Positions 39,559 to 60,251 of a DNA stretch of 60,251 nucleotides are shown piece after piece. Source of the stretch: a virus. Lineage: Duplodnaviria; Caudoviricetes. Both the position numbers and the translations under genes were made by a program. The notes beneath the pieces are model-generated. The model was not told the DNA's origin. It saw only the letters and a program-made list of their open reading frames with translations, and made no database searches. Each line of letters opens with the position of its first letter. The first letter of the stretch is position 1. The stretch is from IMG/VR virus record IMGVR_UViG_3300033153_001386, positions 1-60,251 of that record; one strand, written 5' to 3'.

Positions 39559-39559
39559 G

Positions 39560-41573: not shown

Positions 41574-41833
41574 AGCAGAGCATCATCGCAGCGGGGCGGG
41601 TAGCTGTTGAGCAACTAATTAAGGTGGCTCAAGAGGATATCCTAAAGCCTAGCGAAGACGATGAGCTTGCGGCGGATAGGTTGAAGAATGCGGCGGCTAC
41701 CAAGAAGCTCGCCATCTTCGACGCCTTTGAAATTTTGAACCGCATCGACTCGGAAGAGGAGGAGCTGGAGTTGGCGTCGGGCACCACCAAGACGGAAAGC
41801 AAGGTGGGTTTTGCAGAGCGAAGGTCAAGATAA
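41552..41833 (+). CDS. Putative terminase small subunit
   Basis: Helical 93-aa protein directly before TerL. Confidence 0.5.
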   Translation: MQDSKKLKQSIIAAGRVAVEQLIKVAQEDILKPSEDDELAADRLKNAAATKKLAIFDAFEILNRIDSEEEELELASGTTKTESKVGFAERRSR

Positions 41834-44042: not shown

Positions 44043-46478
44043 ATGAAAGACGTCAAGATAAATATCTCCAGTGCTGGGTTTCCTAATCAGTTCGTTTCTG
44101 ACGCGGAGAAAGCTAGTGATGAGTATGGCTTGATGGTCGGTCAGGCCATTCAGTATGAGTGGTTTAAGAAGGATGGTAGCCAGTGCCGGTTTTACAACCA
44201 GTGGCGGGAGTTCAATCGCCTGCGTCTTTACGCTCGTGGTGAGCAGAGTATTGCTAAGTACAAGAACGAGCTTGCCGTCGACGGCGACCTTTCGTATTTG
44301 AATTTGGACTGGACCCCGGTTCCCATCTTGCCGAAGTTTATTGACATCGTAGTCAACGGTATGTCTGAGCGCGTCTTCAAGGTAAAGGCTTACGCGCAAG
44401 ACGCGTTGTCTCAGGCCAAGCGAAGCAAGTATCAGGATATGATTGAGGGTCAGATGGTAGCCAAGCCTGTCTTGGAAATCATCCAGCAAAAGACTGGTGT
44501 CGACCCATTTACCATGAACCCCGACGACTTGCCTAGCAGCGACGAGGAACTCAAGGTATACATGCAGCTTAACTACAAGCCTGCCATTGAGATTGCTGAA
44601 GAGGAGGCCATCAATACCATCCTCGAAGAAAACCACTACACCGACACGCGCAAAAGGTTGGACTACGACCTCGCTGTTTTGGGACTTAGTGTGGCTAAGC
44701 ACGAGTTCTTGCTTGGTTCTGGCGTTCAGGTATCTTATGTAGACCCGGCTAACGTAGTGTATAGCTATACCGAAGACCCGTACTTCAAGGACTGTTTCTA
44801 TTGGGGAGAGATTAAGACTTTGCCGATTACGGAGCTCATGAAGATTGACCCCAGCCTCACCAACGAGGACTTGGAGGAAATCAGTAAGTACAGTCAAAGC
44901 TGGTACGACTACTACAACACAGCTCAGTATTACGAGAACGATATGTTCCATCGTGATACAGCCACGTTGATGTACTTCAATTACAAGACGACCAAGAAGG
45001 TGGTCTATAAGCGTAAGAAGCTTGAGGGCGACGGCGCTCGCGTTATTGAAAAGGACGACCAGTTCAACCCTCCCGAGGAGATGATGGAGGAGGGTTCATA
45101 CGAGAAGGTTGAGAAGACCATTGACGTATGGTACGACGGCGTTATGGTTATGGGGACCAACATCCTATTGAAGTGGGAAGTGGCACAGAACATGGTGCGC
45201 CCTAAGTCTGCGTCTCAGCATGCCTTGCCAAACTATGTGGCTACAGCACCACGGATGTATAAGGGCGTTATCGAGTCGCTTACGCGGCGTATGATTCCTT
45301 TCGCGGACCTCATTCAAATTACGCACCTCAAGCTACAGCAGGTTATCTCTCGCACCGTTCCTGACGGAGTGTATATCGATGCTGATGGATTGAGTGAGGT
45401 AGACCTTGGTACGGGCAATGCCTATAGTCCAGAGGATGCTTTGCGCTTGTACTTCCAAACTGGTAGTGTAGTGGGGCGCTCATACACCCAAGACGGAGAG
45501 TACAATCAGGGAAAGGTTCCTATCCAAGAGCTGAATAGCAACAGCGGTGCCGCCAAGACGCAGATGCTGATTGGTAATATGAATCATTATTTGCAGATGA
45601 TTCGTGACGTAACGGGACTCAACGAGGCCCGCGACGGAAGTACTCCTGACCCCAACAGTCTTGTTGGATTGCAGAAGCTGGCTGCTGCCAATAGCAATAC
45701 GGCTACCCGACACATCTTGGATGGTAGCCTGTATATGTTCCGCTCTCTGGCTGAGGCACTTACATATCGTGTTAGCGATATTCTGGAGTACGCTGACTTC
45801 AAGGATGAGTTCGTTAATCAGATTGGTAAATACAACGTCAGTATCCTCCGTGAGATTAGTGAGCTGTACATCTATGACTTCGGTGTATTTATTGAGATTA
45901 GCCCCGACGAGGAGCAGCGTGCTCAGCTTGAGGCGAATATCCAAATGGCTTTGAGCAAGGGTGGTATCGACCTTGAGGACGCCATAGATATCCGAGAGAT
46001 TAAAAACATTAAGCTCGCCAACCAACTTCTCAAGATTAAGCGTGTTGCGAAGCAGGAGGAGGAGCGTCAGTTCCAGCTCCAGCAGCAGCAGATGCAGGCG
46101 CAGAACAACATGCAGTCACAGCAGATGGCGGCGCAGACCGCTATGCAAAAGATTCAGGCTGAGGCCCAGAGTAAGATGCAGGTCAAGCAGGCGGAGATTG
46201 CTTTCGAGATTGAGAAGATGCAAGCTGAGGCTCAGGCTAAGGCTCAGCTTATGGACCTTGAGTTCAAGTATAACCAACAGCTTCATGGCATGCAGGAGCA
46301 GCAGTTGCAGGTTCGGGAGGATAAGCGTGAAGACGCTAAGTCAAGCAGAATCAGTCAACAAAATACTGAGCAGAGCAAGCTTATTGACCAGCGGAAGAAT
46401 AACTTGCCGCCTATGAATTTCGAGTCGAACGAGGACAGCCTCGATGGTTTCGACTTGGCCGAGTTTAGTCCACGATAA
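44043..46478 (+). CDS. Portal protein
   Basis: 811 aa directly after TerL; PKFIDIVVNG, IRDVTGLNEARDG; Q-rich C-terminal barrel typical of podovirus portals. Confidence 0.85.
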   Translation: MKDVKINISSAGFPNQFVSDAEKASDEYGLMVGQAIQYEWFKKDGSQCRFYNQWREFNRLRLYARGEQSIAKYKNELAVDGDLSYLNLDWTPVPILPKFIDIVVNGMSERVFKVKAYAQDALSQAKRSKYQDMIEGQMVAKPVLEIIQQKTGVDPFTMNPDDLPSSDEELKVYMQLNYKPAIEIAEEEAINTILEENHYTDTRKRLDYDLAVLGLSVAKHEFLLGSGVQVSYVDPANVVYSYTEDPYFKDCFYWGEIKTLPITELMKIDPSLTNEDLEEISKYSQSWYDYYNTAQYYENDMFHRDTATLMYFNYKTTKKVVYKRKKLEGDGARVIEKDDQFNPPEEMMEEGSYEKVEKTIDVWYDGVMVMGTNILLKWEVAQNMVRPKSASQHALPNYVATAPRMYKGVIESLTRRMIPFADLIQITHLKLQQVISRTVPDGVYIDADGLSEVDLGTGNAYSPEDALRLYFQTGSVVGRSYTQDGEYNQGKVPIQELNSNSGAAKTQMLIGNMNHYLQMIRDVTGLNEARDGSTPDPNSLVGLQKLAAANSNTATRHILDGSLYMFRSLAEALTYRVSDILEYADFKDEFVNQIGKYNVSILREISELYIYDFGVFIEISPDEEQRAQLEANIQMALSKGGIDLEDAIDIREIKNIKLANQLLKIKRVAKQEEERQFQLQQQQMQAQNNMQSQQMAAQTAMQKIQAEAQSKMQVKQAEIAFEIEKMQAEAQAKAQLMDLEFKYNQQLHGMQEQQLQVREDKREDAKSSRISQQNTEQSKLIDQRKNNLPPMNFESNEDSLDGFDLAEFSPR

Positions 46479-47563: not shown

Positions 47564-49003
47564 ATGGCAGGTTCAGTAAACACAACCCCGGGGTTCCAAC
47601 TCCAGCCGAGCGCAGACCAAGTCCCGCTCTCGACAAACTACATCACCAACTTCAACTTTCTCAACCAGTATCTCCCTGATACTTACGAGAAGGAGTTCGA
47701 GCGTTATGGAAATCGCACAGTAGCATCGTTCCTCCGTATGGTTGGCGCGGAGTTGCCATCCAATTCAGACCTCATCAAGTGGGCTGAGCAGGGTCGTCTC
47801 CACACCAAGTATGTCGAGTGTGGCACGACAGCCGCTGCTGCTGCTAATGTCGCAACATTTCAAGTCAATGACGTCTTGAACGCTAACGGATTTGTTGGTG
47901 GCCATACAGCTAACAACATCGCTATCCGTGTCGGTCAAACTGTAATGCTTGACCAGAACAATGGCACCGGAAGTAACAAGGCTATCGTGACCGACGTTGA
48001 CCTTACGCTCAATCAGTTTGACGTTGCGTTCTATGACGCTGGTGGATACGCTGGTGTTGCTGGAGCCCTTACGGACACTAATGTAACTGTGTTCATTTAC
48101 GGTTCTGAGTTCGAGAAAGGAACTTTAGGAATGGATGGTTCACTCGAAGCTGAGGACGAAATCTTTGAGTGCAGCCCTATCATTCTGAAGGACAAGTATG
48201 CGGTCAATGGTTCTGACATGGCTCAGATTGGATGGATTGAAGTGACCACCGAGAACGGTGCGAATGGATACCTCTGGTACATGAAGTCTGAGCACGAGAC
48301 CCGTCTCCGATTCGACGACTACCTCGAGACATCTATGCTGGAAGCAGTTCCTGCTGACGTAGGTGGTGCTGGTTCAGGTGCAGCGTCTGCTGGTTACAAG
48401 GGTACCGACGGTATCTTCTATACCCTCGAGACTCGTGGTAACGTTTGGTCTGGCGGTATCCCCGCCGCTTTGGCTGACTTCGATGCAATCATCTCTCGCT
48501 TGGATAAGCAGGGTGCCATCGAGGAGAACGTCATCTTCGTTAACCGTGACTTCGGGTTTGCCATCGACGATATGTTGGCTGCTCAGAATAGCTACGGTGC
48601 TGGCGGAACTAGCTACGGCTTGTTCGACAACGACGAGCAGATGGCTCTCAACCTTGGCTTCACAGGCTTCCGCCGTGGTTACGACTTCTACAAGTCTGAC
48701 TGGAAGTACTTGAACGACCCAACTATGCGTGGTGGTCTCGCTTCTGGCGGAATCAACGGCATGATGGTTCCTGCCGGTAGCACTACCGTGTACGACCAAG
48801 TGTTGGGTAAGAACGCCAAGCGTCCGTTCCTCCACGTCCGCTACCGTGCCTCTGAGACTGAGGACCGCCGGTACAAGACTTGGATTACAGGTTCTGCTGG
48901 CGGAGCTATGACTAGCGACCGTGACGCGATGGAAGTAAACTACCTCTCTGAGCGTGCAGTATGCACCATGGGAGCGAACAACTTCTTCCTGTTTAACGAC
49001 TGA
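47564..49003 (+). CDS. Major capsid protein
   Basis: 479 aa after the scaffold; strongly biased codon use; WAEQGRLH motif recalled from Bacteroidota podovirus capsids. Confidence 0.8.
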   Translation: MAGSVNTTPGFQLQPSADQVPLSTNYITNFNFLNQYLPDTYEKEFERYGNRTVASFLRMVGAELPSNSDLIKWAEQGRLHTKYVECGTTAAAAANVATFQVNDVLNANGFVGGHTANNIAIRVGQTVMLDQNNGTGSNKAIVTDVDLTLNQFDVAFYDAGGYAGVAGALTDTNVTVFIYGSEFEKGTLGMDGSLEAEDEIFECSPIILKDKYAVNGSDMAQIGWIEVTTENGANGYLWYMKSEHETRLRFDDYLETSMLEAVPADVGGAGSGAASAGYKGTDGIFYTLETRGNVWSGGIPAALADFDAIISRLDKQGAIEENVIFVNRDFGFAIDDMLAAQNSYGAGGTSYGLFDNDEQMALNLGFTGFRRGYDFYKSDWKYLNDPTMRGGLASGGINGMMVPAGSTTVYDQVLGKNAKRPFLHVRYRASETEDRRYKTWITGSAGGAMTSDRDAMEVNYLSERAVCTMGANNFFLFND

Positions 49004-49017
49004 TTCTAACCGGGTAT

Positions 49018-49040
49018 TGGGGGCGCAATCGGCGCCCCCA
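49018..49040 (+). terminator. GC-rich hairpin after the MCP gene (weak terminator or mRNA stabiliser)
   Basis: tgggggcgc-aatcg-gcgccccca; no clear U-tract. Confidence 0.5.
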
Positions 49041-49066
49041 CTATCCATCCCTTTAAATAAATTATT

Positions 49067-49798
49067 ATGAAAAACAAAGTATACCGCTTGAAGCGGAAGA
49101 ACACCCCTATCGCATTTATGATTCCCGGTCGCGGAAACGGCTCTAACCCCCTTCTGTATTGGGATGAGGACCGAGGAGAGAACCGCCCCTTGCGCTACGC
49201 GCGGAATCAGAAGAGCCCTTTCGAGGATGAGCAGGACGGCAACGCCATTGTTGAGCCCATCGTATTTGAAGACGGGTTCTTGAGTGTCCCAAAAAACAAC
49301 CCTGTCTTGCAGGAGTTTCTCCATTACCATCCTATGAATGGTATTAAGTATGAGGAGGTCAACGAAGAGCGTGACGCAGGCGCTGAAGTTGAGCAGCTTA
49401 ACCTCGAGGTGGACGCCTTGGTTGAGTGCAAGAACATGAGTATCGAGGCTTTGGAGCACGTCTCACGGGTCTTGTTGGGCATTGACCCCACTCGCATTAC
49501 TACGTCGGAGTTGCGCCGCGATATGCTCATCTATGTGCGTCGCGACCCAGAGACGTTCCTGCGCGTAGTGAACGACCCAGACTTGAAGTTGCAGTCTAAG
49601 ATTCAGAGATTCTTTGACGACAACCTGTTGTCTTTCCGACGCAACAAGACGGAAATTTGGTTCAACGGACCGACGAATAAAAAGAAGCTTGTCACCATTC
49701 CATTCGGCGAAGACCCTGTGGCTTTGGCTACGGCCTACTTGCTTAGTGATGAGGGCCTCGACCACCTTCGCTCTCTCGATGCTTTAATTTCAGAGTAG
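49067..49798 (+). CDS. Conserved protein following the MCP
   Basis: 243 aa, LRYARNQKSPFEDEQ...FEDGFL.VP. Confidence 0.7.
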   Translation: MKNKVYRLKRKNTPIAFMIPGRGNGSNPLLYWDEDRGENRPLRYARNQKSPFEDEQDGNAIVEPIVFEDGFLSVPKNNPVLQEFLHYHPMNGIKYEEVNEERDAGAEVEQLNLEVDALVECKNMSIEALEHVSRVLLGIDPTRITTSELRRDMLIYVRRDPETFLRVVNDPDLKLQSKIQRFFDDNLLSFRRNKTEIWFNGPTNKKKLVTIPFGEDPVALATAYLLSDEGLDHLRSLDALISE

Positions 49799-49810
49799 TA
49801 CATTTGAGTC

Positions 49811-50122
49811 ATGGACAGGTATATTTCAATCCCCATTAAGCCAGCGTCGGGCTCTCCGTACGAGAAATTGGTTAACGTCAGTTCAGTTACCATTAAGGAC
49901 GACGAAGGCCAAGGCACTCTTCTAGTTGCGCAAAACATGTACGACCCACGAGTGTGGAGTTTTGATGCAAGGCAGACCACGGGGGGGCCGGCCACTGATG
50001 ATGATGTTTGCGGATGGATGAGTCGCGCCATTGTGGCTTTTAACGGAGTATCTGGCCCTGTTCAAAAGGCTCTAGATAGTCCTAAGTTTTACTTCAGAAG
50101 CTTTTCTTACGTATCATCATGA
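49811..50122 (+). CDS. Hypothetical protein
   Basis: Preceded by TACATTTG; 103 aa. Confidence 0.6.
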   Translation: MDRYISIPIKPASGSPYEKLVNVSSVTIKDDEGQGTLLVAQNMYDPRVWSFDARQTTGGPATDDDVCGWMSRAIVAFNGVSGPVQKALDSPKFYFRSFSYVSS

Positions 50123-50505
50123 GCACTAAATTTTTAGGTCCGTTCATCACTTCTTTTTCTGGACCGCGTTCAAGTTCGTCTACGCGTAGCTACGCTAACT
50201 TCTCTAACATCATGGCCATCGATTCCCTTTCCGGTGGTAACGAAAACGATGACCAGTACGCAGCGATTAAGACTATTCCTGCGGGATATGATTCAGGTTC
50301 AGATAGCATGTCGTTGATTGGGTTTGATTTTGTCAATGCAGACGGAACTGCTCCAGTTCCCGATGTGGACCGTGGGTATTTAAAGTTTCTCAACAGAAAC
50401 CTCATCAACGTTCTTACGTCTAGACCTGACGATGTAGTTGTCCCTGTTGATTACACTGTCGGTCTTCAGACCAGACACATTAACGTATACACAGATTACA
50501 CCTGA
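50119..50505 (+). CDS. Hypothetical protein
   Basis: 128 aa, coupled on both sides. Confidence 0.6.
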   Translation: MSTKFLGPFITSFSGPRSSSSTRSYANFSNIMAIDSLSGGNENDDQYAAIKTIPAGYDSGSDSMSLIGFDFVNADGTAPVPDVDRGYLKFLNRNLINVLTSRPDDVVVPVDYTVGLQTRHINVYTDYT

Positions 50506-51275
50506 TGAAAACTATTTCAACTCCGCTCCGTCGGATTCTTGAAGATGTGGTCGACAACTCACTCACCAGTCTGGGAGAGTTCGATTCATTTGACGCGAAT
50601 ACCTATGTCTTGGTCGACGCTAGTGCAAACTTCCCTACTACGGGTGGCGTTGGCGACATCGTATTTAATCCAGATGACTCTCGTCGATGGGCAACTATTG
50701 TTAGTGTAGATAGTACCACTCAGATTACTCTTGATGGCCCTATTGGCGCTCCGTCATATACATACTATTCCGTCTCACCTGCCGCTACCGCCTTCCAAGT
50801 TGTCACAGATAGTAATTCCGTCGCTCAGAAATGGATTAGCACCTATAGCGTAGGCGATAAAGTTACTTGTCTAGGGGGTCAAGAAATTACCTATTTCAAC
50901 TTGGGAGTAGCTACAATCTTGTCTATCGACTATGATGCGACTGTGGGTTCAGAAACCGCTACGCTGACGTTGGATTTACCAATGTATACTTCCGATAATG
51001 TTTACGGATATGTGAAAGGGGAAATACAAACTATTCCAGTTAATGAGGTGCAGCTGGTAAACTTCATTCTCGAAGAAGATTCGTTCTACGCCGAGATTAC
51101 TTTTAATGGAGATTCGGCTGCGCAACTGTATACGGGAATTGCTTCAGGTGATGAAGCGAGTTATCTTGAATTTGAGAAGAATTTTATGGATGCCGTTCAA
51201 AAGGTACTTCGCAGTCCTTGGCCTACAGCCAACGCTATGATTAAAGACTCTTACGGAATGTACTTTGAGTATTAA
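50505..51275 (+). CDS. Hypothetical beta-rich structural protein
   Basis: LVDASANF...GDIVFN....ATIVSVDSTTQITL resembles the module in the 32888 gene. Confidence 0.55.
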   Translation: MKTISTPLRRILEDVVDNSLTSLGEFDSFDANTYVLVDASANFPTTGGVGDIVFNPDDSRRWATIVSVDSTTQITLDGPIGAPSYTYYSVSPAATAFQVVTDSNSVAQKWISTYSVGDKVTCLGGQEITYFNLGVATILSIDYDATVGSETATLTLDLPMYTSDNVYGYVKGEIQTIPVNEVQLVNFILEEDSFYAEITFNGDSAAQLYTGIASGDEASYLEFEKNFMDAVQKVLRSPWPTANAMIKDSYGMYFEY

Positions 51276-51302
51276 TATAGTTACTCTTTCAGAATTCAAA
51301 AG

Positions 51303-51328
51303 AGCCACCTTCGGGTGGCTTTTTTTTT
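51303..51328 (+). terminator. Intrinsic terminator
   Basis: agccacc-ttcg-ggtggct followed by T8. Confidence 0.9.
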
Positions 51329-51341
51329 AGACCTTCGTTTC

Positions 51342-52565
51342 ATGAAGCGTTGGCTCCTACTACTCTACTTCCCTTTATCTTCTTACGCCCAGTGCGACCT
51401 TGAGCTCCTTGACTTTAACTCCGTGAATGGGTTGGTTACGGTGGCGTTTCACAATACCAATGGTTGCGGTGGTACGGGCGGTCCCGATGGGGTGTCCGAA
51501 ATTCAATTCGGATTCCAAGCTGTAGACGAGGACTGTAATGCCATGAATATCGGGTGGGACTTCCCGTTTGAATTTTCTATCTCGGGCACAAACAACCATC
51601 CCGGATGGATATTCTCTTCTACTACTACTGAGCTCGGAGGGAATTGGACGAACCTGTATGACGACTCTCTAGACCCCCCGTACTATACGGGGGATACGGT
51701 CTCGTTCCCTGTATTCAATTCATATCAGAACGATTGTGTGGACGGTGAGTTCTCCGGCTTTGCTAGTTGTGAGCTTTCTAACGTCATCGACTACTGGGCT
51801 AGTGAGGGGTACAGCATTCAGGTTGTGATATGGCAGATTAGCTATGGGCCTACTATGTATGCGGCTGACGGAGGTTGGGCTGAGGTTGGTGTTAATGGTG
51901 ACGGTACTTCGTGGGGAAGCGGATTATATGAAGATGCCAACTTCATAGACAATTGGATTGTGGTGGGCCCATGCGGTGAGCCGCTACCTGAGGTTGTCGT
52001 GGACACGGTGTATATCGAGCTGCCAGCGGATACCGTTGTGATAGTAGAGTACGACACGCTATACATTGAGTTGCCGCCCGATACGATTCTTTTGGTAGAG
52101 TACGACACTACGTTTGTGGAGCTCCCTACCGATACGATTCTTTTAGTAGAGTACGATACCACCTATATCGAGTTGCCACCTATTTCCGTGGTGGTTTGGG
52201 ACACGGTCTATATTACGCTTTTAGACACCATAATCGTAGAGGTAGACTGTCAGACTGGGCAGGAGTGCTTAGAGGTTATCGAGTGCCCCATATATGCTCC
52301 TAACGCCTTTACACCGGACAACGACGGGGTCAACGACACTTGGTTTATTGAGGCTCCCAACGACTGCTGGGACAACGTGTACATCAGGGTGTATTCTAGG
52401 TGGGGAGATTTGGTATGGGTTTCGAAAGACTTCAGCGAGAGATGGGACGGTGGTTTCGACAAGGCTTATGTTCGTGACGACGTGTATGTCTATCACTTTG
52501 TGGCTAGAAATATCTATAGCAATCAGTGGGTTGAGCGTACTGGTCACGTGCTAGTATTGAGATGA
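51342..52565 (+). CDS. Secreted protein with a Sec signal peptide, a D-T-x repeat stalk and a T9SS type-B (CHU_C / gliding-motility-associated) C-terminal domain
   Basis: MKRWLLLLYFPLSSYA|Q; C-terminal YAPNAFTPDNDGVNDTW...VYSRWG.LV...WDG...VYVY...GHV.VLR. Confidence 0.85.
   Translation: MKRWLLLLYFPLSSYAQCDLELLDFNSVNGLVTVAFHNTNGCGGTGGPDGVSEIQFGFQAVDEDCNAMNIGWDFPFEFSISGTNNHPGWIFSSTTTELGGNWTNLYDDSLDPPYYTGDTVSFPVFNSYQNDCVDGEFSGFASCELSNVIDYWASEGYSIQVVIWQISYGPTMYAADGGWAEVGVNGDGTSWGSGLYEDANFIDNWIVVGPCGEPLPEVVVDTVYIELPADTVVIVEYDTLYIELPPDTILLVEYDTTFVELPTDTILLVEYDTTYIELPPISVVVWDTVYITLLDTIIVEVDCQTGQECLEVIECPIYAPNAFTPDNDGVNDTWFIEAPNDCWDNVYIRVYSRWGDLVWVSKDFSERWDGGFDKAYVRDDVYVYHFVARNIYSNQWVERTGHVLVLR
52002..52232 (+). 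repeat. 51-bp (17-aa) tandem repeats DTxYIELPxDTIxxVEY
   Basis: gtagagtacga x3, gatacgattct x2. Confidence 0.9.
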
Positions 52566-52578
52566 TTATCTTTAGAGA

Positions 52579-53295
52579 ATGATTGATTCAGTCCGTCAAA
52601 CCGTGCTATCCATTCTTAATAAGAACAATTACGGTTACGTATCTCCATCCGACTTCAATCTCTTTGCCAAGCAGGCGCAGCTAGAGATTTTTGAGAACTA
52701 CTTTACTGGCCTCAACCAAGCCATCAACGCGGAGAACGCGCGTATGTCTGGTACGGACTACGCCAATATGACCAAGGGCATCAACGAGGACATCGACATC
52801 TTCTCGGTGTCTAAGGATTTGACACAGAATACAAACAACCTGTTCTTTACACCAAGTGTCACAACCACCAGTGACGACTACTACTTGCTGAACAAGGTAT
52901 TGGTCAACGGAGCTGAAGCCGAGCCTGTTACGCATAGCCGCATCACCATGTTGGCCAACTCGAACTTGACGGCTCCGTCGGAACAGTATCCTGCTTACAC
53001 CATCGACAATCCCGCCGCTGGTCAGGTGGTCACAGTATATCCTACAGGCACTACGTACGCACAGGGCGATGTGGTGTGCCAATACGTGCGGTATCCCTTC
53101 GACCCGAAGTGGACGTATGTCACGCTTGCCAACGGAGAGCCTGTATTCAATCAGTCCTCTACGGACTACCAAGACTTTGAGCTGCCTATCGATGATGAAC
53201 CTAGGCTTGTGTATGGCATCTTACAGATGGCTGGCATGAGCATCCGAGAGGGCGACGTCTATCAGTACGCTAACGCAGAAGAGAAAGAGCAGTAA
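52579..53295 (+). CDS. Head-tail adaptor/ring-like protein
   Basis: LNKNNYGY.SP.DFNL.A..AQ; Y.RYP..PKW; position before the tail genes. Confidence 0.6.
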   Translation: MIDSVRQTVLSILNKNNYGYVSPSDFNLFAKQAQLEIFENYFTGLNQAINAENARMSGTDYANMTKGINEDIDIFSVSKDLTQNTNNLFFTPSVTTTSDDYYLLNKVLVNGAEAEPVTHSRITMLANSNLTAPSEQYPAYTIDNPAAGQVVTVYPTGTTYAQGDVVCQYVRYPFDPKWTYVTLANGEPVFNQSSTDYQDFELPIDDEPRLVYGILQMAGMSIREGDVYQYANAEEKEQ

Positions 53296-54218
53296 TGGCA
53301 TACATCACAGACTACCAGTATTACGAGAACGGGGGCAATACTCCTGAAGACGCGAACTGGGGAAGCTACCAATACGTTTCGTTGCAGGATATCGTCAACA
53401 ACTTCCTGTTGATGTACAACGGCAACCACTCTCTTGTTAATAACGAGGAGCGGTACAAGATTTTGTTTCATGCCAAGCGGGCCATTCAAGAGTTGAACTA
53501 CGACTCCTTGAAAGAGATTAAGGTTCTTGAGCTCAGTGTCTGTGATAGCTTACGGTTTGTCCTACCTCCCGACTACGTCAATTGGGTGCGTATCTCTCTT
53601 TATAAGGACGGAATCCTGCGACCGTTAACGGAGAATATCCAGACAAATTGGAGTTCGGCGTATCTGCAAGACAACAACTGCCGTATTCTTTTTGACGAGA
53701 CGGGGGCTACGCTACGCCCTCAAGATTCTACCATCGACTTCGACCGTATTACTGGAACCAAGCCTAGTATCTACCTCAACGGAAACAATCAGTTCGACGG
53801 TCAGCTCGGGTATTGCTGCGATGGTTCTTGGTATTTCGACTACAACATAGGCGCCCGCTATGGCTTGAACACGGAGACTGCTAACGCAAATCCCACGTTT
53901 AGCATCAACAAGAAGGGGGGTGTCATCAACTTCAGCAGTCACATGGCTGACGAGCTGTGCGTCATCGAGTACGTTAGCGACGGCATGGAGGGCGGTAACA
54001 ACGCTGAGATTAGCGTGAACAAGATGTTCGAGGAATATGTGTACGCATACATCCAGTACGCCATCCTTGACGCTAAGTTGGGTGTACAGGAATACATCGT
54101 GGGTCGGGCGAGGAAGAAAAAGAACGCGCTTCTTCGCAACGCGAAGCTTCGTGTCAGTAACATCCACCCCGGGCGTTTGCTGATGAATATGCGTGGTCGC
54201 GACAAGTGGATTAAGTAA
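53295..54218 (+). CDS. Second tail ring/adaptor-like structural protein
   Basis: 307 aa, FHAKRAIQEL.YD, LPPDYVNWVR; TAATG-coupled. Confidence 0.6.
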   Translation: MAYITDYQYYENGGNTPEDANWGSYQYVSLQDIVNNFLLMYNGNHSLVNNEERYKILFHAKRAIQELNYDSLKEIKVLELSVCDSLRFVLPPDYVNWVRISLYKDGILRPLTENIQTNWSSAYLQDNNCRILFDETGATLRPQDSTIDFDRITGTKPSIYLNGNNQFDGQLGYCCDGSWYFDYNIGARYGLNTETANANPTFSINKKGGVINFSSHMADELCVIEYVSDGMEGGNNAEISVNKMFEEYVYAYIQYAILDAKLGVQEYIVGRARKKKNALLRNAKLRVSNIHPGRLLMNMRGRDKWIK

Positions 54219-56910
54219 TGGCGAATCTGGTAAGGAACTTCATCAAGGGGCGTATGAACAAGAGCGTCGACGAGCGCCTTGTCCCCAACGGAGAGTATAT
54301 CGATGCCCGTAATATTCGGATGGGTTCCACCGAGGACTCTGAGATTGGAGCGGTAGAGAACACCAAGGGTAATACACGCCTTACCAATTTGGTATACCCA
54401 CCTACGGGTACTGCCATCAGTAACAAATCAACTTGCCTTGGGGCATATAGCGATGGTGCCAACGAGACCATGTACTGGTTCGTTCACGACCCTGCGTTTA
54501 CTGAAGGTGGTACGGGAAAGCTCGACCTCATCGTTTCGTACAATATGCGTAGCGACCTACTGACGTACCATGTGGTCAGTATCGAGGACGCTTCCGACCC
54601 TACGAATAGCAATACCACGCTGAACTTCGACCCGCAGTATCTAATTACGGGTATCGACTTGGTTGACGACCTGTTGTTCTTTACCGACGACTTCAACCCT
54701 CCGCGCCGAATCAATGTAGGCACGGCCTATCCTGAGCCTGTGGCTTTTGAGGATAGTGGCGTTTTAGGAAACGACATTCTCGTTATCAAGCGCCCGCCTT
54801 TAGAAGCCCCTGTGGTAGCACCTGTTGCGGTGGTCTCTAGGGAAGACTATATGGAGGACAGGCTGTTGTGCTTTGGTTACCGGTGGGAGTATGCCAACAA
54901 CGAGTACTCAGCAACGTCTATGTTCAGTGCTCCTGTATTTGAGAGCGAACCGTTTGCCTTTACCACTGAGTCGTACCTCAACGAGGGTATGGTCAACTCC
55001 GTGCAGGTGTGCGACGTTACGGTGCGTACTGGGGACTCTTTGGTGAAGGGTATCGACATCTTGTTCAAGGAGATGGATGACAATATCATCCGTGTCATTG
55101 AGAAGGTAGACAAGGCAGACTCCGCTTTGACGGACAACTCTGACTACACCATCCAGTTCAGCAAGCAAAAGATTTTCACCATCCTTCCGGAGAGTGAGAT
55201 ACTGCGACTGTATGACAACGTCCCTCGGTTGGCTAAGGCCCAGACCTTGATGGGCAATAGGATTGTCTATGGCAACTACCTCGAGGGGTACGACATGGTC
55301 AATATGAACGGCCTGCCCAATAAGCTTGGATACAACGTGTCACTGGTTCAGACACCTTTGGATGCCGAAGCGGCAAGCACTCAACCTACGTTCTCTGCCC
55401 CTAGCCTACACAGCAACCGTGTGTATGAGATTGGAATCGTATACATGGATGAGTTCGGACGGTCTAGTACTGCCCTTGTTGCGCCTAATAATAAGGTTGA
55501 ACTTGAGTGTGGGGACTCTATTTTTCAAAACCAGATTCGTGCGACCATCCCTTCGTTGATGTTACCCCCCTCGTGGGCTAGTAGATACAAGTTTGTCATC
55601 AAGCCCGACAGTGAGAATTACGAGACCATCTACACCAACCAGAACTTTGTGTGGCCTGCGCTGCCCGACCCGGATGACCCTCAGCCTGATGTAATTGATG
55701 TTTATTTCCTGCTCGAAGGAGAGAACGCGGCCAAGGTAGAGAAGGGGGACAGATACGTTGTGAAGAGCGACACCTCTGGTGCGGTTACGTCATGTACTTA
55801 CGCTGAGGTTCTAGAGAAGAAGGCATACGGTGTGGGTGAGCTGGATAACAGCGACCCTCTCGAGCCTATTCCAGCTATTGCGGGTACGTATATGAAGATG
55901 AACCCGGACTTCTCTTACTCGGCTCCTCCGGAGGCAAACACCGCCCCCGGAGAGCAGTCGGCAGGAACAAACGGTGGCGCAGACCAAAGGACGGAGAACG
56001 GACCGGGCGACTCCGGCGATTACCCTGTACTCGTATACAAGTTCAATGACAAGGACGGTGGTGTTTTGCGTGAGGTCCCCGCAGGGAGCCGCATCCGTCT
56101 TACGTTCAGCCTTACCCGTCAGGGCCGAGGCGACGGAACGGGCTCGTGCGAAAAGCGTACCCTTGACTTCGACCATACGTGGGAGGTGGAGCAGGACTAC
56201 GCCTCTATTATCGAGTGGTTCTACGACACTGGAAACGGCGTGATTGCCACTATCGAGGCAGCGGAAGGATTTACCGGAGACCCCAACGGAACTCCGCCGG
56301 ACATAACGGTCTTATCCGAGTACACCGGAACCAACACGGATAACTTTGGCGTGGCTTCCGGCACAGGTGAGGTCATGCTATGGACCGACCAAGGTGGCGC
56401 CGGAGGCCCATGGCTCATTATCTATGGCTCTGAAAAATGCGGTGGTGTAACTGGTGGCAGCAGTCCTAATCGCAGGTCTAGGGTTAAAGCAAGCCTTGCC
56501 ATCACACGGGCTACTGATGTTGTCGTTTTCGAAACCGAGCCGCAGCCAGCTTTGCCCGACCTGTGGTATGAGTCGAGCGCGTCGTTTTTTATTGACCAGC
56601 AGAATGGTCGGCACTACGGCAATGTACAAGACCAGACGGGGGCTCAACCGGCCATCATCGACACGGCGTTCTTCAACTGCATAAGCTACGGCAATGGTGT
56701 CGAGAGCTATAAGATTCGTGATTCGATTAGCGGCAAGCCCATTACCTTGGGCAACCGCGTTACTACGACCAGCGACGAGCGGTTCTCTCAGGTGCGACGC
56801 TTTGCTGACCTGACGTATAGCGGTGTCATTAACGATGAGACCAACATCAACAAGCTCAATGAGTTCAACCTTGGGTTGCTCAACTTCAAGCCGCTAGAGG
56901 ACAGCTATGG
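54218..56910 (+). CDS. Tail nozzle/stabilisation protein, N-terminal part (frame breaks near 56910)
   Basis: F..GRMNK..DERLVP.GEY.DA.N start, NPPRRIN, YDNVP..AKAQ; protein-like sequence stops after KPLEDSYG. Confidence 0.7.
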
Positions 56911-58053
56911 GAGGATAAGATTAGCTATGTCTTGGCAGGCAAGAACCTCCTTACCGACGCTACTGGTGAGAGCGTGGTTACGTCTGTGCCGGAAGTATTG
57001 GGTAATCAGGTGGCCCGCGTTGAGGACTTTGGTATCAGCAACAACCCCGAGAGCTTTGCTGAGTGGGGCCCGCACAAGTTCTTTACCGACGCCAAGCGTG
57101 GCTCTGTCATCCACCTCTATGGCGATGGGCAGAACGAGCAGCTCACGGTCATCAGTGAGAACGGTATGCGGAGCTGGTTCCGCGATGAGTTTATCGAAAG
57201 CTTCAACACGCAGAAGCTTGGGGGGTACGACCCGTATATGAACGAGTACGTGTTAGCAAGTAACGATGTCTTCCTACCCGGTCAGGAGGATTGCATCGAG
57301 TGCAATACGGTGCAGACGTTCCTGCTTACTCCGGCTCAACAGAGTTTCTGCGTCAACCTCGGCAATATCACTGGCGACGTTTCCATTAGCTACAACGTAA
57401 TTGAGGCGTCTCTACCGGACTCGGCTACTATTACCACTACGTATGGTGGTTCGAGCGTTACCACTGGCCCGATTACTTATGGTGCTCAACCCCCTGTACC
57501 AGATGTAAATAAAAATTCTATTACGGACAACACCGTAAAGATTGACCTTAACTACTCAGGTTCAAGACGTTTCGTGTTGCAGGTTCAGGTCAAGTGTCCT
57601 GACGAAGTGGACTTGAAGTTGAGATTGATTACGGTTAACCGCCCCAATGAAGCACGGCAATCCATCCATAGCGAATTCTTTTGGCAAGATGGTGTGTTCG
57701 TATCTCCTTTGAGCAGTACCGCCGTTACGTTTGACTACGCCGCGTTAGGTCCTGTCATCTCAGACTGGCAGGAGTTTACTGTAGCTCAGGGTAGCAACCT
57801 TGGTCCAACCAATGGTAGCACTATTACCATGGCGTACAATAGGATTGGCACGGACAACTATACGTTGCGCCCCTCCGACACGTTCAAGTGGTTGCGTACT
57901 AATGTTGAGTATCTGAAAGGGGACATTGTGACGCTCTTGGGTGCGGCTAACACTGAGACACCTGTAGGCGCACAACCCGAGTACACTGCCGACTTCCTTA
58001 TGCCACCGGGCACCGATGAGTACCTCTACCTAATCTGGGATTATTCGAACTAA
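56911..58053 (+). CDS. Tail nozzle/stabilisation protein, C-terminal part in a shifted frame
   Basis: EDKISYVLAGKNLL...GISNNPESFA...FFTDAKRG...GMRSWFRD...LGGYDPY. Confidence 0.7.
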   Translation, partial: EDKISYVLAGKNLLTDATGESVVTSVPEVLGNQVARVEDFGISNNPESFAEWGPHKFFTDAKRGSVIHLYGDGQNEQLTVISENGMRSWFRDEFIESFNTQKLGGYDPYMNEYVLASNDVFLPGQEDCIECNTVQTFLLTPAQQSFCVNLGNITGDVSISYNVIEASLPDSATITTTYGGSSVTTGPITYGAQPPVPDVNKNSITDNTVKIDLNYSGSRRFVLQVQVKCPDEVDLKLRLITVNRPNEARQSIHSEFFWQDGVFVSPLSSTAVTFDYAALGPVISDWQEFTVAQGSNLGPTNGSTITMAYNRIGTDNYTLRPSDTFKWLRTNVEYLKGDIVTLLGAANTETPVGAQPEYTADFLMPPGTDEYLYLIWDYSN

Positions 58054-58839: not shown

Positions 58840-59319
58840 ATGGAAGAGATTCTGTATCATGTACACAAGGAGCGAGGCTTGCTCTGGGAATCCATTGAGG
58901 ATTTGCGGAATCAGCTTGCCCCTTTAGACAATACGGTATCTCACCACACGGAGGATATGCAGGACTTGATGCCTGTCACCCACAAGCTTGAGAACGGACT
59001 GTATACTCGTGAGGTATTTATGCCTGCGGGTCAGCTCGTCGTCAGCTTCATCCACAAGCAAAACCACCCGTCTTTCTTTATGGAGGGTGAGATGTCTCTG
59101 CTGATGGATAGCGGCGAGGTCAAGCGCGTCAAGGCCCCTATGGTGGTACATACTGAGGCGGGTACGCAGCGTGTTGCCGTCATCCATGAGGACACGCGGT
59201 GGGCGTGCGTATATCGCACCGATGCCAAGACCATTGAAGAGGCGGAGAAAGAGGTGTACACTATGGACTTCCGGGAATTGCCGGAGGCCGTAATACAAAA
59301 GAAACTATGTCAGGAGTAA
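58840..59319 (+). CDS. Cupin-fold phage protein
   Basis: H....GLYTRE..MPAG..V...IHK..H...G...AP......GT.R....HEDT.W. Confidence 0.7.
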   Translation: MEEILYHVHKERGLLWESIEDLRNQLAPLDNTVSHHTEDMQDLMPVTHKLENGLYTREVFMPAGQLVVSFIHKQNHPSFFMEGEMSLLMDSGEVKRVKAPMVVHTEAGTQRVAVIHEDTRWACVYRTDAKTIEEAEKEVYTMDFRELPEAVIQKKLCQE

Positions 59320-60251
59320 TTCTAGCTACAGCTATCGGAAGCGGTGTCACCGCTGCGGGTGGTATTGGAGCCGTCGCTGCCGCCGGTATCGGCGCGGGCA
59401 CAACCCTGTACGGGGGAGCCAAGTCTTTCAGCGATGCCAACAAGGCACGTAAGCGTGGTGATGCCGCGCAGCGTGCTGCGGACAAAGCGATTGAAGAGGC
59501 CAAGAGGCGTGTCGACGTCAACGTCTACGAGCAGTTGTCCATTGCGAAAGAGCCGTACGAGCTTATGCGTGAGGCGCAACTCGTTCAAGGGGCTACTGGT
59601 ATGCAAGCCGGCGTCGAGGGTGATACGCGCGGCGCAGCAGCTACGGCAGGCCGCATCCAAATGGCTCAGGGTCAGCAACAGGCTGCCATCCGTGCTCAGC
59701 AGTCCCAACAGATGGATGAGATTAACAAGCTCGTAGCTAAGGAGGACGCACGTCGGCAGCAACAGCTCGCGGGCATCGCCATGGACGAGGCAGCGGGAGC
59801 GCAGCTCGCTATCCGCGACGCCGAGGAGGACCGGGCAAACTACATCGCTCAGGGTGTGGGCACACTGGGTAGTATCGCTGAAGGCTTGAGCAGTTCGTAT
59901 GCCGAGGGGAACTTTGGTCAGGGTAACACCCGTCGTCAGCAACGCCTTGCCGAGGAGGCTCGGTTGAATGAGATTACACAGGGTGCCGTGGGTGCTGCAC
60001 AGCGTAACGCCGCCCTTCGGCCCGTGACCATGGATGGTGTTGACGCCGAGGGTTATGAGATTCCTTTGGATGAGCCCCTGACTCCGTTTCCTGTTTCTAA
60101 CCAACCCATGGCTCCGCGTCAGGCATCGGCTTTTGCACCGCAGACTCCGGTTCCAACCTTGCAGCCCTTAATGGGACCTCCGGTTATTCAGCAGCCACCA
60201 TACGTTGCTCCGCCACCGTCGGGGCCGTATGACGCGTTTGGCTTGCCACGA
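59307..60251 (+). CDS. Putative ejection/pilot protein, open at the window end
   Basis: ATG 59307; G/A-rich hydrophobic N-terminus, A/Q-rich coiled coil, P-rich tail; no stop before 60251, so absent from the ORF track. Confidence 0.7.
   Translation, partial: MSGVILATAIGSGVTAAGGIGAVAAAGIGAGTTLYGGAKSFSDANKARKRGDAAQRAADKAIEEAKRRVDVNVYEQLSIAKEPYELMREAQLVQGATGMQAGVEGDTRGAAATAGRIQMAQGQQQAAIRAQQSQQMDEINKLVAKEDARRQQQLAGIAMDEAAGAQLAIRDAEEDRANYIAQGVGTLGSIAEGLSSSYAEGNFGQGNTRRQQRLAEEARLNEITQGAVGAAQRNAALRPVTMDGVDAEGYEIPLDEPLTPFPVSNQPMAPRQASAFAPQTPVPTLQPLMGPPVIQQPPYVAPPPSGPYDAFGLPR

Follow-up and report, generated by a model that had tools for sequence, protein, structure and literature searches.

The window analysed here is the whole 60,251-nucleotide stretch of virus DNA, a complete 60-kb podovirus genome (a CheckV-100% virus record). 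The gene of interest lies at 51342-52565 on the plus strand, with its ATG at 51342, a stop codon ending at 52565 and an intact reading frame coding for a product of 407 aa. The product, here called the cargo protein, consists of four parts: a signal peptide, a 200-aa beta-sandwich N-terminal domain (N-domain) which belongs to no known family, a stalk of 17-aa repeats and a type-B sorting domain for type IX secretion systems (T9SS) at the C-terminus (CTD). The features of the locus are collected in Table 1. The initial annotation had left room for a fragment of a chimeric host contig; the CheckV-100% record, and the terminase, portal, capsid and tail genes which the window annotation places on either side of the cargo gene, show the locus to be phage and not a chimera.

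Table 1. Features of the cargo gene and its surroundings (window positions)
Feature	Position	Strand	Basis or remark
Three variably present accessory genes (103, 128 and 256 aa)	49811..51275	+	same slot of structural module
Hairpin AGCCACC-TTCG-GGTGGCT followed by T9, intrinsic-terminator-like	51303..51328 (hairpin 51303-51320, T9 to 51328)	+	direct reading
Predicted Sec/SPase I signal peptide, residues 1-16, cleavage between YA and Q	51342..51389	+	sequence features, alignment
N-terminal passenger domain (conserved, an elaborated beta-sandwich), residues 17-216	51390..51989	+	alignments, AF2
Stalk, residues 217-301, 17-aa DTxYxELPxDTxxxxEY repeats	51990..52244	+	repeat analysis, TRF, motif count
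Cys-rich linker, residues 302-318, DCxTGxxC...C	52245..52295	+	alignment
Type-B T9SS CTD, residues 319-407, and stop codon	52296..52565	+	CHU_C, TIGR04131
Virion structural gene phrog_14543, downstream	52579..53295	+	starts 14 nt past cargo stop

The gene was initially given the span 51330..52565. The gene itself is real, but position 51330 falls within the T-run of the upstream hairpin. The hairpin and its T9 end 13 nt ahead of the ATG; a hairpin scan reports the 51303-51320 hairpin on the minus strand only, and the T9 was read directly from the sequence. The gene was also described as self-contained and as followed by a promoter box. A terminator-like hairpin does precede it, but it is not a self-contained cassette, because it abuts the next structural gene with a 14-nt gap and because in another phage group there is overlap between the cargo ATG and the stop codon of the ORF upstream of it. 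No promoter-like site adjoins the gene: a sigma-70-type scan, by which Bacteroidota promoters are not modelled, gives 2 sites in 49000-53500, neither of them adjacent.

Related genes lie between phage genes in 35 IMG/VR loci, among them two other CheckV-100% genomes, and occur in at least three contexts: 20 loci have the gene in the structural module, between head and tail genes (group A), 9 have it just upstream of a terminase which is 48% identical to that of the window, and 3 have it among QueC/QueE/thymidylate-synthase genes. The phrog_14543 gene follows directly 3' of the cargo gene in all 20 group-A loci. Of the group-A loci examined, 14 of 14 keep the hairpin and its spacing to the ATG, whichever gene is upstream; none of 9 group-B loci has it. 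The three accessory genes, for which no Pfam or PHROG match was found, vary between group-A loci, some of which have them, some lack them and some have versions of no more than 27-63% identity. They are absent from MW202828, the closest complete relative, which has the same structural module without the cargo gene. The identity of the cargo is 64-95%, with flanking proteins at about 90%.

The first reading of the protein described a Sec signal peptide with Ala before a Gln, an acidic, Cys-containing N-domain, a 17-aa-repeat stalk whose nine DT motifs were taken as Bacteroidota O-glycosylation sequons, and a type-B T9SS CTD, and this architecture is borne out in each of its parts. The predicted signal peptide and cleavage, MKRWLLLLYFPLSSYA followed by QC, combines a basic n-region with a hydrophobic core. 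In front of Gln17, which is invariant, the 61 aligned relatives have A (37), G (15) or S (9). The sequence of the signal peptide is divergent among these relatives, yet A/G/S at -1 and Gln at +1 are kept in 61 of 61, in agreement with the Bacteroidetes Q-rule of a Gln directly after the signal-peptidase cut, as described in PMC5837995. Free divergence while the SPase I and Q-rule features are kept is the pattern expected of a working export signal.

The N-domain (28 D+E, no K+R, 6 Cys) has about 50 invariant columns in the alignments A1/A2 and is better conserved in the family than any other part, with a median identity to the window protein of 68.5% compared to 46.5% for linker plus CTD. The AF2 model (pLDDT 75, pTM 0.77) gave no Foldseek match in the PDB at E<=1e-3. 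VIA scores reach Z 5.9 at best, which is background, so the fold reveals no function. The weak matches are to Ig/FN3/CBM-like beta-sandwiches and include a porphyran-binding CBM (8wae, Z 5.1). The domain is rare, with only 22 representatives among 1.84 billion. A BFVD fold search returned 2 viral proteins only, one of them 52% identical, the other (21% identity) a 'Gliding motility-associated C-terminal domain-containing protein' of Virus NIOZ-UU157. The N-domain is most likely the conserved working part of the protein, a binding module. A disulfide signature in the loop 124-152 was considered and rejected; the loop has 2 Cys in 26 relatives and none in 24, but 1 or 3 in 11. The total Cys counts of the relatives are often odd.

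The stalk contains three in-register copies of a 51-nt (17-aa) unit at 52002-52154, 71-73% alike, and TRF reports a period of 51 with 2.3 copies. Its length varies from 78 to 211 aa across the 61 relatives. AF2 does not model it as a monomer (pLDDT about 26). All nine DT motifs are D-T-[VLIT], exactly as first listed, and thus fit the Bacteroidota O-glycosylation sequon D-(S/T)-(A/I/L/V/M/T) given in PMC8550257 and PMC8729774. Across the relatives 677 of 693 DT motifs in the stalk are followed by A/I/L/V/M/T, compared to 24% after a T which is not preceded by D. The array is unusually dense, with 9 sequons per 91 aa against 7 in the best stretch found among 51 cellular type-B cargo proteins. 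The sequons lie in a part that would be exposed to the periplasm, given the transit predicted from the signal peptide, and O-glycosylation of the stalk is plausible on these grounds. The sequon motif is of low specificity, and since all nine sequons arose from about 4.5 homologous repeats they are not independent. The stalk is V/I/Y/L-rich and beta-prone, unlike mucin-type spacers, and the strict choice of V/I/T/L behind DT could have a structural cause instead of one related to glycosylation. In P. gingivalis, according to PMC8729774, abundant surface cargo is biased against O-glycosylation and often unglycosylated.

In the linker C303 and C309 are invariant and C315 nearly so, and 58 of the 61 relatives have three Cys. 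The CTD follows at the extreme C-terminus (319-403 of 407), as in the relatives. The Pfam family CHU_C (PF13585) matches residues 319-388 (E 1.1e-14, 54.7 bits with a cut-off of 27) and TIGR04131, 'T9SS type B sorting domain', matches residues 319-403 (E 4.9e-11, 42.6 bits with a cut-off of 35; profile positions 3-81 of 85), so both lie above their curated cut-offs. The AF2 model of the CTD (pLDDT 85-93) superposes on solved CTDs of T9SS substrates, with Z 9.1 for 8glk_D (rmsd 2.0, 73 aligned), 8.6 for PorZ and 8.0 for PorU, values near the caution zone of the tool which a common beta-sandwich may explain. For the matches (PorZ, PorU, RgpB and F. johnsoniae substrates) the type is not stated, and a solved type-B CTD was not identified among them. 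The residues N321, P325, G329, N331, D332, R353, G355, W368, G370, Y382 and G401 are invariant in the family; five conserved motifs, A-E, of the type-B CTD are needed for secretion according to Paillat et al. (2025, PMC12618676). PF13585 is present in 120 of the 120 homologues listed, out of at least 284. A scan of 11 more proteins found it in 8, among which are all four of the tested N-domain relatives whose identity is only 37-43%; it is missing from a protein truncated at its C-terminus, from a fragment of 202 aa and from an HMG-box protein that is unrelated. As judged from this distribution the CTD is kept under selection. With CHU_C, TIGR04131, the CTD fold and the predicted signal peptide the protein has all the sequence features of a type-B T9SS cargo.

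The composition of the passenger is unusual. It has no K/R in 302 residues, and the passengers of the 61 relatives together have 6 K/R in 19,973 residues compared to 6.2% in their CTDs. The same is seen in 20 loci of a Flavobacteriales MAG, in which the median K+R is 0.55% in the 500 aa before the CTD and 6.7% in the CTDs. The structural proteins of the phage have 5-14% K+R. A literature search for Lys/Arg-poor T9SS passengers found no matching title or abstract; the observation may still be in print. The near-lack of Lys/Arg in viral and cellular type-B passengers hints at an unrecognised constraint, set by the secretion route or by the cell surface.

The family has at least 284 members, and the 120 listed have E <= 1e-113 at a query coverage of 51-100%. 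Among 185,579 species genomes 1 locus of the family was found, a truncated copy at the end of a bacterial MAG contig. The nearest ESM Atlas clusters are 96-100% viral. A tblastn search of INPHARED (50,697 records) with a single sequence, an insensitive probe and no survey, gave no match in a cultured phage; the matches are to two huge uncultured phages only and over the CTD alone. On this distribution the family is found almost only in phages, and it is mobile. The window stretch occurs in runs from marine sediment, vents and seawater, and DNA contigs of an independent run cover the cargo gene. RNA-library contigs from two studies cover 51407-52516 with 0-4 mismatches, which is a weak hint of transcription, as such contigs may contain DNA and give neither strand nor level. 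The same contigs do not cover 49167-51337, a gap from which we conclude nothing.

The two ends of the protein have separate histories. The identities of N-domain and CTD in 1830 pairs are correlated by 0.23, and the extreme pairs are 97% identical in the N-domain and 37% in the CTD, or 66% and 95%. The CTDs of group A are 64-100% identical to that of the window in 15 of 15 loci, and those of group B 38-51% in 9 of 9 loci with a similar N-domain identity. Judged from these identities N-domain and CTD have been recombined between phages, and the class of the CTD follows the phage backbone. Such backbone-linked classes fit the strong CTD-shuttle specificity reported for F. johnsoniae in PMC12618676.

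Cellular type-B cargo is described as anchored by binding to a PorP-like protein (PMC9143113). No PorP/SprF shuttle (PF11751) was matched among the 40 phage ORFs scanned with Pfam, and a six-frame search of the genome found no PF11751 and no type-A PF18962, the control genomes being equally silent. Since type-B secretion is shuttle-specific, and without a shuttle in the phage, secretion would depend on a host partner. Adjacency of a shuttle gene is not obligatory, as three orphan type-B cargo proteins of F. johnsoniae are reported to be served by an unlinked shuttle (PMC12618676). The host is probably a marine member of the Bacteroidota, from the uncultured Flavobacteriales. The weak pointers to Flavobacteriales are the names of two MAG proteins, a MAG which carries one of the loci (L038) and the hosts of distant cultured relatives. 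A tRNA search of the phage genome found none, and thus tRNAs give no hint of the host.

From the sequence features, the family distribution, the modular shuffling and the composition we infer a course of export, glycosylation and display. The main reading is that the gene codes for a genuine type-B cargo which is expressed late and reaches display on the infected cell by way of a host shuttle, and we give it a probability of about 55%. The source phage would be a lytic podovirus in which transcription of the late structural genes includes the cargo gene, downstream of a terminator that is leaky. The protein would be exported by Sec, and signal peptidase I would cut before Gln17, which would then cyclise. 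The D-T-(V/I/L/T) sites of the stalk would likely be O-glycosylated in the periplasm, after which the type-B CTD may take the protein through the SprA translocon onto a PorP/SprF-like shuttle of the host. As the phage is without a shuttle of its own the protein would be an 'orphan' cargo that mimics a host CTD. The Lys/Arg-free beta-sandwich would be kept clear of the outer membrane by a glycosylated spacer whose length varies, and the CTD would be the host-matching part, swapped between phages. The favoured role, which is the least certain step, is that the surface of the infected or lysing cell is remodelled so that phages no longer adsorb productively. This might serve superinfection exclusion or protect the progeny from debris, and occupation of the host adhesin shuttle could contribute.

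In group A the gene directly follows a terminator within the module of late structural genes, a position equally suitable for a virion protein, and an exclusion role is poorly served by late expression. If the product were a decoration protein or a fibre of head or tail, the CHU_C-like sandwich and the repeat shaft would be structural elements, and the hydrophobic N-terminus would not be for export. In agreement with this, all 20 group-A genes lie between genes for head and tail, with a 'virion structural protein' gene immediately downstream of them, and AF2 fails to model the stalk as a monomer. The 17-aa repeat, beta-prone and with a conserved Pro, may also resemble the shaft of a fibre. We nevertheless hold a virion protein to be improbable: the structural module does not contain the gene in 12 of the 35 loci, where it lies upstream of terminase (9 loci) or in the company of nucleotide-metabolism genes (3 loci), MW202828 does without it in the same module, none of the PHROG families matches the protein, and the K/R-free passenger is like that of cellular type-B cargo and not like structural proteins with their 5-14% K+R. 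The freely diverging signal peptide with its SPase I and Q-rule features kept in 61 of 61 is likewise difficult to explain in a virion protein. Misassembled host DNA, or a decaying captured host gene, can practically be dismissed. The sole related item is the truncated copy at the end of the MAG contig, which lends no support, and it stands against an intact frame, at least 284 homologues, DNA contigs from one independent run and the same gene between phage genes in 35 independent loci, two other CheckV-100% genomes among them.

If the protein is exported its benefit may be another one. The CTD could be the working part of a jammer of T9SS and gliding, with the late protein saturating the host PorP/SprF-like shuttle or the SprA translocon, so that delivery of host adhesins (possible phage receptors) and gliding stop and N-domain and stalk are a bulky plug or incidental. 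Any secretion must indeed compete with host cargo when the phage has no shuttle, the class of the CTD tracks the phage backbone, and type-B cargo and shuttles are reported to pair specifically, with some CTDs directing cargo to the gliding machinery (PMC12618676). A plug does not need a sequon-dense stalk of variable length, however, and the N-domain as the most conserved part (68.5% compared to 46.5%, about 50 invariant columns) argues for a specific function of its own, for which reasons we find jamming unlikely. A secreted or displayed binding protein might also give an ecological benefit, by attachment to particles, algae or polysaccharide, with no effect on phage adsorption. The Ig/FN3/CBM-like N-domain with its weak match to the porphyran-binding CBM, the mostly adhesin-like cellular type-B cargo (Pfam lists) and the marine sediment, vent and seawater runs would be in line with such a binder. 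We judge it a poor candidate, on a level with the virion protein, because none of its fold matches rises above background (best Z 5.9) and because an N-domain essentially absent from cellular genomes is odd for a general adhesin and points to a phage-specific task.

The main reading, display of a late type-B cargo on the infected cell, can be extended into a more general proposal which we put forward tentatively, the odds being somewhat against it. It states that marine Bacteroidota phages share an exchangeable type-B 'cargo cassette' with a conserved, near-phage-only binding head, an amine-free, heavily O-glycosylated and length-tunable spacer and a swappable adhesin-mimic CTD, and that the viral protein is carried by a given host PorP/SprF shuttle and perhaps by the gliding track as well. 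If this is true, no other virus would have been shown before to bring a protein of its own into the type-B branch of T9SS, the CTD classes would be a readable marker of host range, and the cassette would be a natural surface-display tool for Bacteroidota; signal peptide, spacer and CTD together could be put to use for displaying proteins on the surface of marine Flavobacteriia. In Bacteroidota, a phylum dominant in ocean and gut, T9SS makes the coat of the cell surface, the adhesins and the gliding machinery, and a widespread, near-phage-only family of type-B cargo would show that viruses use it to rebuild the host surface during infection. The natural domain swaps, the same passenger with different CTDs and the reverse, offer a handle on the matching of type-B CTDs and shuttles.

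The closest known likeness is cellular type-B cargo. SprB, the orphan cargo proteins Fjoh_1123/1720/4934 of F. johnsoniae and PG1035 of P. gingivalis have the same order of Sec signal peptide, passenger and C-terminal TIGR04131/CHU_C, and the F. johnsoniae orphans, for which Fjoh_1677 is the unlinked shuttle, likewise have no adjacent shuttle gene, as reported in PMC12618676. The almost Lys/Arg-free passenger is shared with the cellular cargo of a Flavobacteriales MAG. The phage protein differs in being encoded by a lytic phage, in its size of about 400 aa compared to 750-2400, in an N-domain practically absent from cells and in its DT-repeat stalk, which is not shared: cellular matches to a stalk plus CTD query cover the CTD half only, and the sequon density exceeds that of any of the 51 cellular proteins. 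The T5 lipoprotein Llp, an early-gene product of a lytic phage at the host outer membrane, prevents superinfection and loss of progeny on debris. The analogy with Llp is functional only, since Llp takes the Lol lipoprotein route and not T9SS, is from an early gene and has no relation in sequence or fold.

The initial annotation knew of no characterised phage system of this kind, which is a fair statement, but uncharacterised T9SS sorting domains in phage contigs had already been reported from sequence in 2019 and 2020 (PMC6949934, PMC7468147). The 'Cryophage' cargo from cryoconite, as presented by Bellas et al. (2020, PMC7468147), also has phage-encoded T9SS sorting domains with a proposed hijack of host secretion, and its cargo genes vary strongly between otherwise similar variants, as in the present family. 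There the domains are type-A on recognisable enzymes (endoglucanase, GH39, PA14), whereas the present cargo is type-B, would need a specific PorP/SprF shuttle, has a near-phage-only passenger and belongs to a large marine family. In the contigs with BACON repeats described by de Jonge et al. (2019, PMC6949934) ORFs with T9SS sorting domains likewise adjoin the head module of Bacteroidota phages; these are gut phages with BACON passengers, and the account of them gives no family analysis and does not state the type of the sorting domain. The signal-peptide proteins of P. gingivalis prophages (Matrishin et al., 2023, PMC10367356) likewise follow the Q-rule, are adapted to Sec/SPase I and are proposed to modify the envelope; they come from temperate phages, and the main text of that paper does not use 'T9SS' or 'type IX'. 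What is new compared to these systems is a near-phage-only family of at least 284 proteins without a phage shuttle, found in at least three contexts, with a Lys/Arg-free passenger and with recombination between N-domain and CTD.

We read the cargo protein as genuine late-expressed type-B T9SS cargo which is displayed via a host shuttle, and give this reading a probability of roughly 0.55. Its ORF is intact and occupies 407 codons at 51342-52565 (+). The initial annotation had the right gene with a wrong start, since position 51330 falls within the T-run of an upstream hairpin and the ATG is at 51342. The parts it described, i.e., signal peptide, acidic Cys-containing N-domain, 17-aa stalk and type-B CTD, were all found again. 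The HMM comparison it had proposed gave scores above cut-off with both Pfam CHU_C (E 1.1e-14, 54.7 bits, cut-off 27) and NCBIfam TIGR04131 'T9SS type B sorting domain' (E 4.9e-11, 42.6 bits, cut-off 35). The stalk DNA contains three 51-nt copies in register (52002-52154, 71-73% alike) flanked by degenerate copies, and TRF reports a period of 51. The signal peptides of 61 relatives diverge freely with the hydrophobic core kept in all; at position -1, 37 have A, 15 G and 9 S (61/61), and the mature N-terminus QCDL is invariant. An N-terminal Gln after the signal peptidase I cut is known as the 'Bacteroidetes Q-rule' (PMC5837995, PMC10653852), and Q-rule prophage proteins have already been noted in P. 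gingivalis (PMC10367356).

Parts of the cargo protein (residues) and features of the window (nucleotide positions)
Feature	Position	Remarks
Signal peptide	residues 1-16	MKRWLLLLYFPLSSYA, then QC
N-domain	residues 17-216	acidic, six Cys
Stalk	residues 217-301	17-aa unit DTxYIELPxDTxxxVEY
Linker	residues 302-318	DCQTGQEC...C
CTD	residues 319-407	CHU_C and TIGR04131 matches
Giant ORF	1981-12921	3646 aa; 80-nt direct repeat near start; no match in a Pfam scan of its two halves
GroEL	28056-29591	full-length; phrog_5725, E 1e-127
Small protein with hydrophobic segment	38780-39025	candidate lysis gene
Endolysin	39022-39375	candidate lysis gene
435-aa protein	39491-40798	N-terminal membrane anchor MPYLVISISLLLLLLATAV; without family match
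GroES-like protein	40965-41573	phrog_13932
Large terminase	41811-44042	PHROGs
Portal	44043-46478	PHROGs
Capsid-type virion protein	47564-49003	PHROGs
GC-rich hairpin, TTCG loop	51303-51320	then nine T's to 51328; ends 13 nt 5' of cargo ATG
Virion structural gene	52579-53295	phrog_14543

AlphaFold2 on the whole protein with a 61-sequence alignment gave a mean pLDDT of 66, with 85-93 in the CTD blocks and below 50 in the stalk region (217-312). The CTD model superimposes on the CTDs of substrates that were caught in the F. johnsoniae translocon (8glk_D, Z 9.1, rmsd 2.0, 73 aligned; 8gl8 and 8glj, Z 7.8; 8gl6, Z 7.5) and on PorZ (Z 8.6), PorU (Z 8.0) and RgpB (Z 7.5). An unrelated Fn-like domain (5xyr, Z 10.2) outscores all of these, and the superpositions indicate agreement in fold and nothing beyond. 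Modelled alone, the N-domain is an elaborated beta-sandwich (pLDDT 75, pTM 0.77) whose structural neighbours stay at background level (top Z 5.9) and comprise FN3, Ig and CBM-like domains; no structural match reached a Z of 8, and Foldseek against PDB returned nothing at E<=1e-3. From this model we infer a binding module of a new family rather than an enzyme.

A word-indexed search with the cargo protein gave 284 matches at E<=1e-3. PF13585 is present in every one of the 120 homologues listed of these 284, each at E<=1e-113, and several of those listed sit on 56-63 kb contigs. An exhaustive HMMER search with the N-domain alone against 1.84 billion proteins gave 22 representatives, 16 of them at E<=1e-10. 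Pfam scans of 11 further proteins found CHU_C in 8, including four with an N-domain merely 37-43% identical; the three negative ones are a 202-aa fragment, a C-terminally truncated protein and an unrelated HMG-box protein. Divergent members retain the DT stalk. Two N-domain signature peptides scanned against 185,579 bacterial and archaeal species, one genome each, led to a single confirmed locus at the contig end of a Flavobacteriales MAG. The closest ESM Atlas clusters are 96-100% viral, and BFVD holds two viral N-domain relatives, one annotated 'Gliding motility-associated C-terminal domain-containing protein [Virus NIOZ-UU157]'. The family thus sampled is large and almost confined to phages. 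In five longer homologues (P0123, P0125, P0134, P0136, P0138) a short Cys module without Pfam match, GCTDxxAxNYDxxAxxDDGSCxY, occurs at least once between N-domain and stalk, and P0125 has the N-domain twice.

That the locus might be a chimeric host fragment was a concern which can be dismissed: the window is an entire IMG/VR virus record (60,251 bases, CheckV 100% complete) with terminase, portal, capsid and downstream virion genes. PHROGs, searched with 36 ORFs of the window, identified additional virion proteins 3' of the cargo gene and, elsewhere, endolysin, GroEL, GroES-like protein, helicase, primase, exonuclease and a Sak-like annealase. Its tail genes have matches to crAss 'muzzle' domains, and the distant relatives known from culture are podoviruses infecting Flavobacterium, Cellulophaga and Maribacter. 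The nearest record, MW202828 (60,850 bp, circular, same head-tail module), is without the four genes of window 49811-52565, and a CHU_C search there gave no match. The muzzle-like tail protein is a single 1551-aa ORF in MW202828; in the window (54218-58053) it extends over two overlapping frames, 54218-57241 and 56932-58053, the homology changing frame near 56925-56932. This layout is also found in group-A relatives (those sharing the window's own context) and could reflect two genes or a conserved frameshift. A 46-nt element (CT-repeat, then ...CTGTCACCGCGTCAC) occurs at 18190-18235 and 27993-28038 with 80% identity, marking both ends of the leftward early/replication gene block, and may be a regulatory or promoter element. 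The stretch 38780-40798 is likely a lysis cassette. ORFs at 1-1981 and 59307-60251 run past the record ends and no terminal repeat was found in the record; the genome may be circularly permuted with one gene cut at the linearisation point.

The IMG/VR scan gave 35 loci, which were sorted by tblastn with the proteins neighbouring the cargo gene in the window. In the 20 loci of group A the gene is directly 5' of a homologue of the virion gene at 52579-53295 (w52579), and the three small upstream genes are present, absent or highly divergent. In the nine of group B it is directly 5' of a terminase 48% identical to that of the window (portal about 32%). The three of group C are on 100-110 kb contigs, among QueC-like, QueE-like, thymidylate synthase and GTP cyclohydrolase genes, and three loci have other contexts. 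Six-frame searches of four locus records gave one CHU_C match apiece. Within group A, the cargo of L017, L019, L021 and L022 is 64-65% identical while two flanking virion proteins are 89-92% identical, and in L003 the cargo is 95% identical while one flank is at 89%; this is the mosaic pattern usual for genes dealing with the host. Three genes without family match fill 49811-51275, between a head gene (49067-49798) and the cargo gene; in relatives they are missing or merely 27-63% identical, and the slot is a hypervariable island within the structural module.

The hairpin and T-run lie at equal distance from the ATG in 14/14 group-A loci examined, regardless of the upstream gene. They are missing in 9/9 group-B loci, where the cargo ATG overlaps the stop codon of a small basic ORF. 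The gene had been taken as self-contained, which does not hold because the phrog_14543 virion gene begins 14 nt after its stop codon; it is the first gene behind a terminator, probably a leaky one, within the late operon. A scan found no promoter-like site adjoining it, Bacteroidota promoters being outside the scan's model. The main rival able to change the picture is that the product is a virion protein instead of T9SS cargo; we consider this improbable. Runs of 13 studies, on marine sediment, vents and seawater, contain the stretch. Contigs covering 51407-52516 with 0-4 mismatches come from two oligo-dT RNA libraries of one study and from a third library of a second study whose RNA label is only guessed; for the genes 3' of the cargo gene, the covering contigs are about 90% alike. 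Such presence in RNA libraries is a weak hint of transcription, uninformative on strand or level.

Compared with the window's protein, the N-domain has a median identity of 68.5%, the stalk of 57%, and linker and CTD together of 46.5%. Of 1830 pairs, 1636 are more alike in the N-domain than in the CTD, the correlation between the two identities is 0.23, and 343 pairs combine N-domains >=70% identical with CTDs <50%; the extremes are P0109/P0120 (N 97%, CTD 37%) and P0035/P0096 (N 66%, CTD 95%). The window's CTD class is present in 15/15 group-A genes (64-100% identical) and other classes in 9/9 group-B genes (38-51% to the window's), while N-domain identity to the window's is 68-77% in group B and likewise 62-76% in many group-A genes. 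Payload and label are shuffled, with the CTD class following the phage backbone. In F. johnsoniae, it is reported that type-B CTDs pair specifically with PorP/SprF-like shuttles, that three orphan cargo proteins have an unlinked shuttle in common, and that the CTD sets the final destination (PMC12618676); anchoring is described as binding of the cargo to its PorP-like protein (PMC9143113). Because of the identity patterns, the tie between CTD and backbone and this shuttle specificity combined, the simplest reading is that the CTD would be the host-matched part and the N-domain would do a conserved job. PorP/SprF had no match among 40 ORFs of the phage, nor in six frames, where control genomes were silent too; the cargo must therefore use and compete for a host shuttle. 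A six-frame search for a type-A sorting domain was also negative, with control genomes equally silent.

The stalk has exactly the nine DT motifs listed initially, each with V, L, I or T next. The stalks of the 61 relatives (78-211 residues) have 693 DT motifs, and in 677 of these (97.7%) the next residue is one of A/I/L/V/M/T (V 264, I 159, T 131, L 113). These residues make up 51% of the stalk and only 24% of positions after a T without preceding D; Tyr is 12.5% of the stalk, yet never follows DT. In Bacteroidota, the motif for O-glycosylation reads D(S/T)(A/I/L/V/M/T) (PMC8550257, PMC8729774). The stalk has 9 sequons per 91 aa, the cargo gene ranking highest among 65 phage ORFs; 51 cellular type-B cargo proteins have a median of 0.95 per 100 aa, and in their best 91-aa window the number is 3 at the median and 7 at most. 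The motif counts are non-independent because the repeats are homologous, and the preference after DT could be structural since the stalk is hydrophobic and beta-prone. Abundant surface cargo of P. gingivalis is reported to avoid O-glycosylation (PMC8729774). Judged from the motifs, O-glycosylation of the stalk is plausible.

K and R are absent from residues 17-318, which include 50 D+E, and number nine in the CTD. Residues matching 17-318 have no K/R in 55 of the 61 relatives and one in 6, amounting to 6/19,973 passenger residues vs 335/5,395 (6.2%) in the CTDs; in the phage's other structural proteins, K+R is 5-14%. In 51 longer cellular CTD-matching proteins (P0141-P0191) the passenger median is 1.4%, a figure which shared-word selection may bias. 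G005, the Flavobacteriales MAG with locus L038, has 36 CHU_C matches above cut-off. For 20 of its 30 best loci (L039-L068; a motif filter missed 10 of the 30) median K+R is 0.55% (0-2.8%) over the roughly 500 residues that precede the CTD, against 6.7% for the CTDs and 8.5% for the remaining open frames of these loci. In one 1470-aa cellular type-B cargo, K/R are altogether absent from the passenger. A Lys/Arg-poor passenger is common to phage and cellular type-B cargo, and may be a general, undescribed trait of type-B cargo in marine Flavobacteriales; nothing on it was found in the literature, judged by titles and abstracts. A K/R-free passenger with a cyclised N-terminal Gln would have zero primary amines. 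As to the reason we can only guess: the passenger may have to resist proteases, or the secretion route or the cell surface may impose a constraint.

The interpretation proposed initially stands in part, namely for the phage locus and the type-B cargo features (CHU_C, TIGR04131, Q-rule), and fails for the self-contained gene. Candidate roles would be adsorption blocking, shuttle jamming or adhesion. A literature search found no report of type-B CTDs in phages, and the T9SS review PMC11205867 brings up phages solely for other reasons. T9SS sorting-domain ORFs beside head genes were described in gut phage contigs by de Jonge et al. 2019 (PMC6949934); this and the phage T9SS report of Bellas et al. 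(PMC7468147) are both sequence observations. New here are the type-B route, the conserved, almost phage-only passenger and the sequon stalk, as well as the passenger/CTD shuffling and a Lys/Arg-free composition that host cargo has too.
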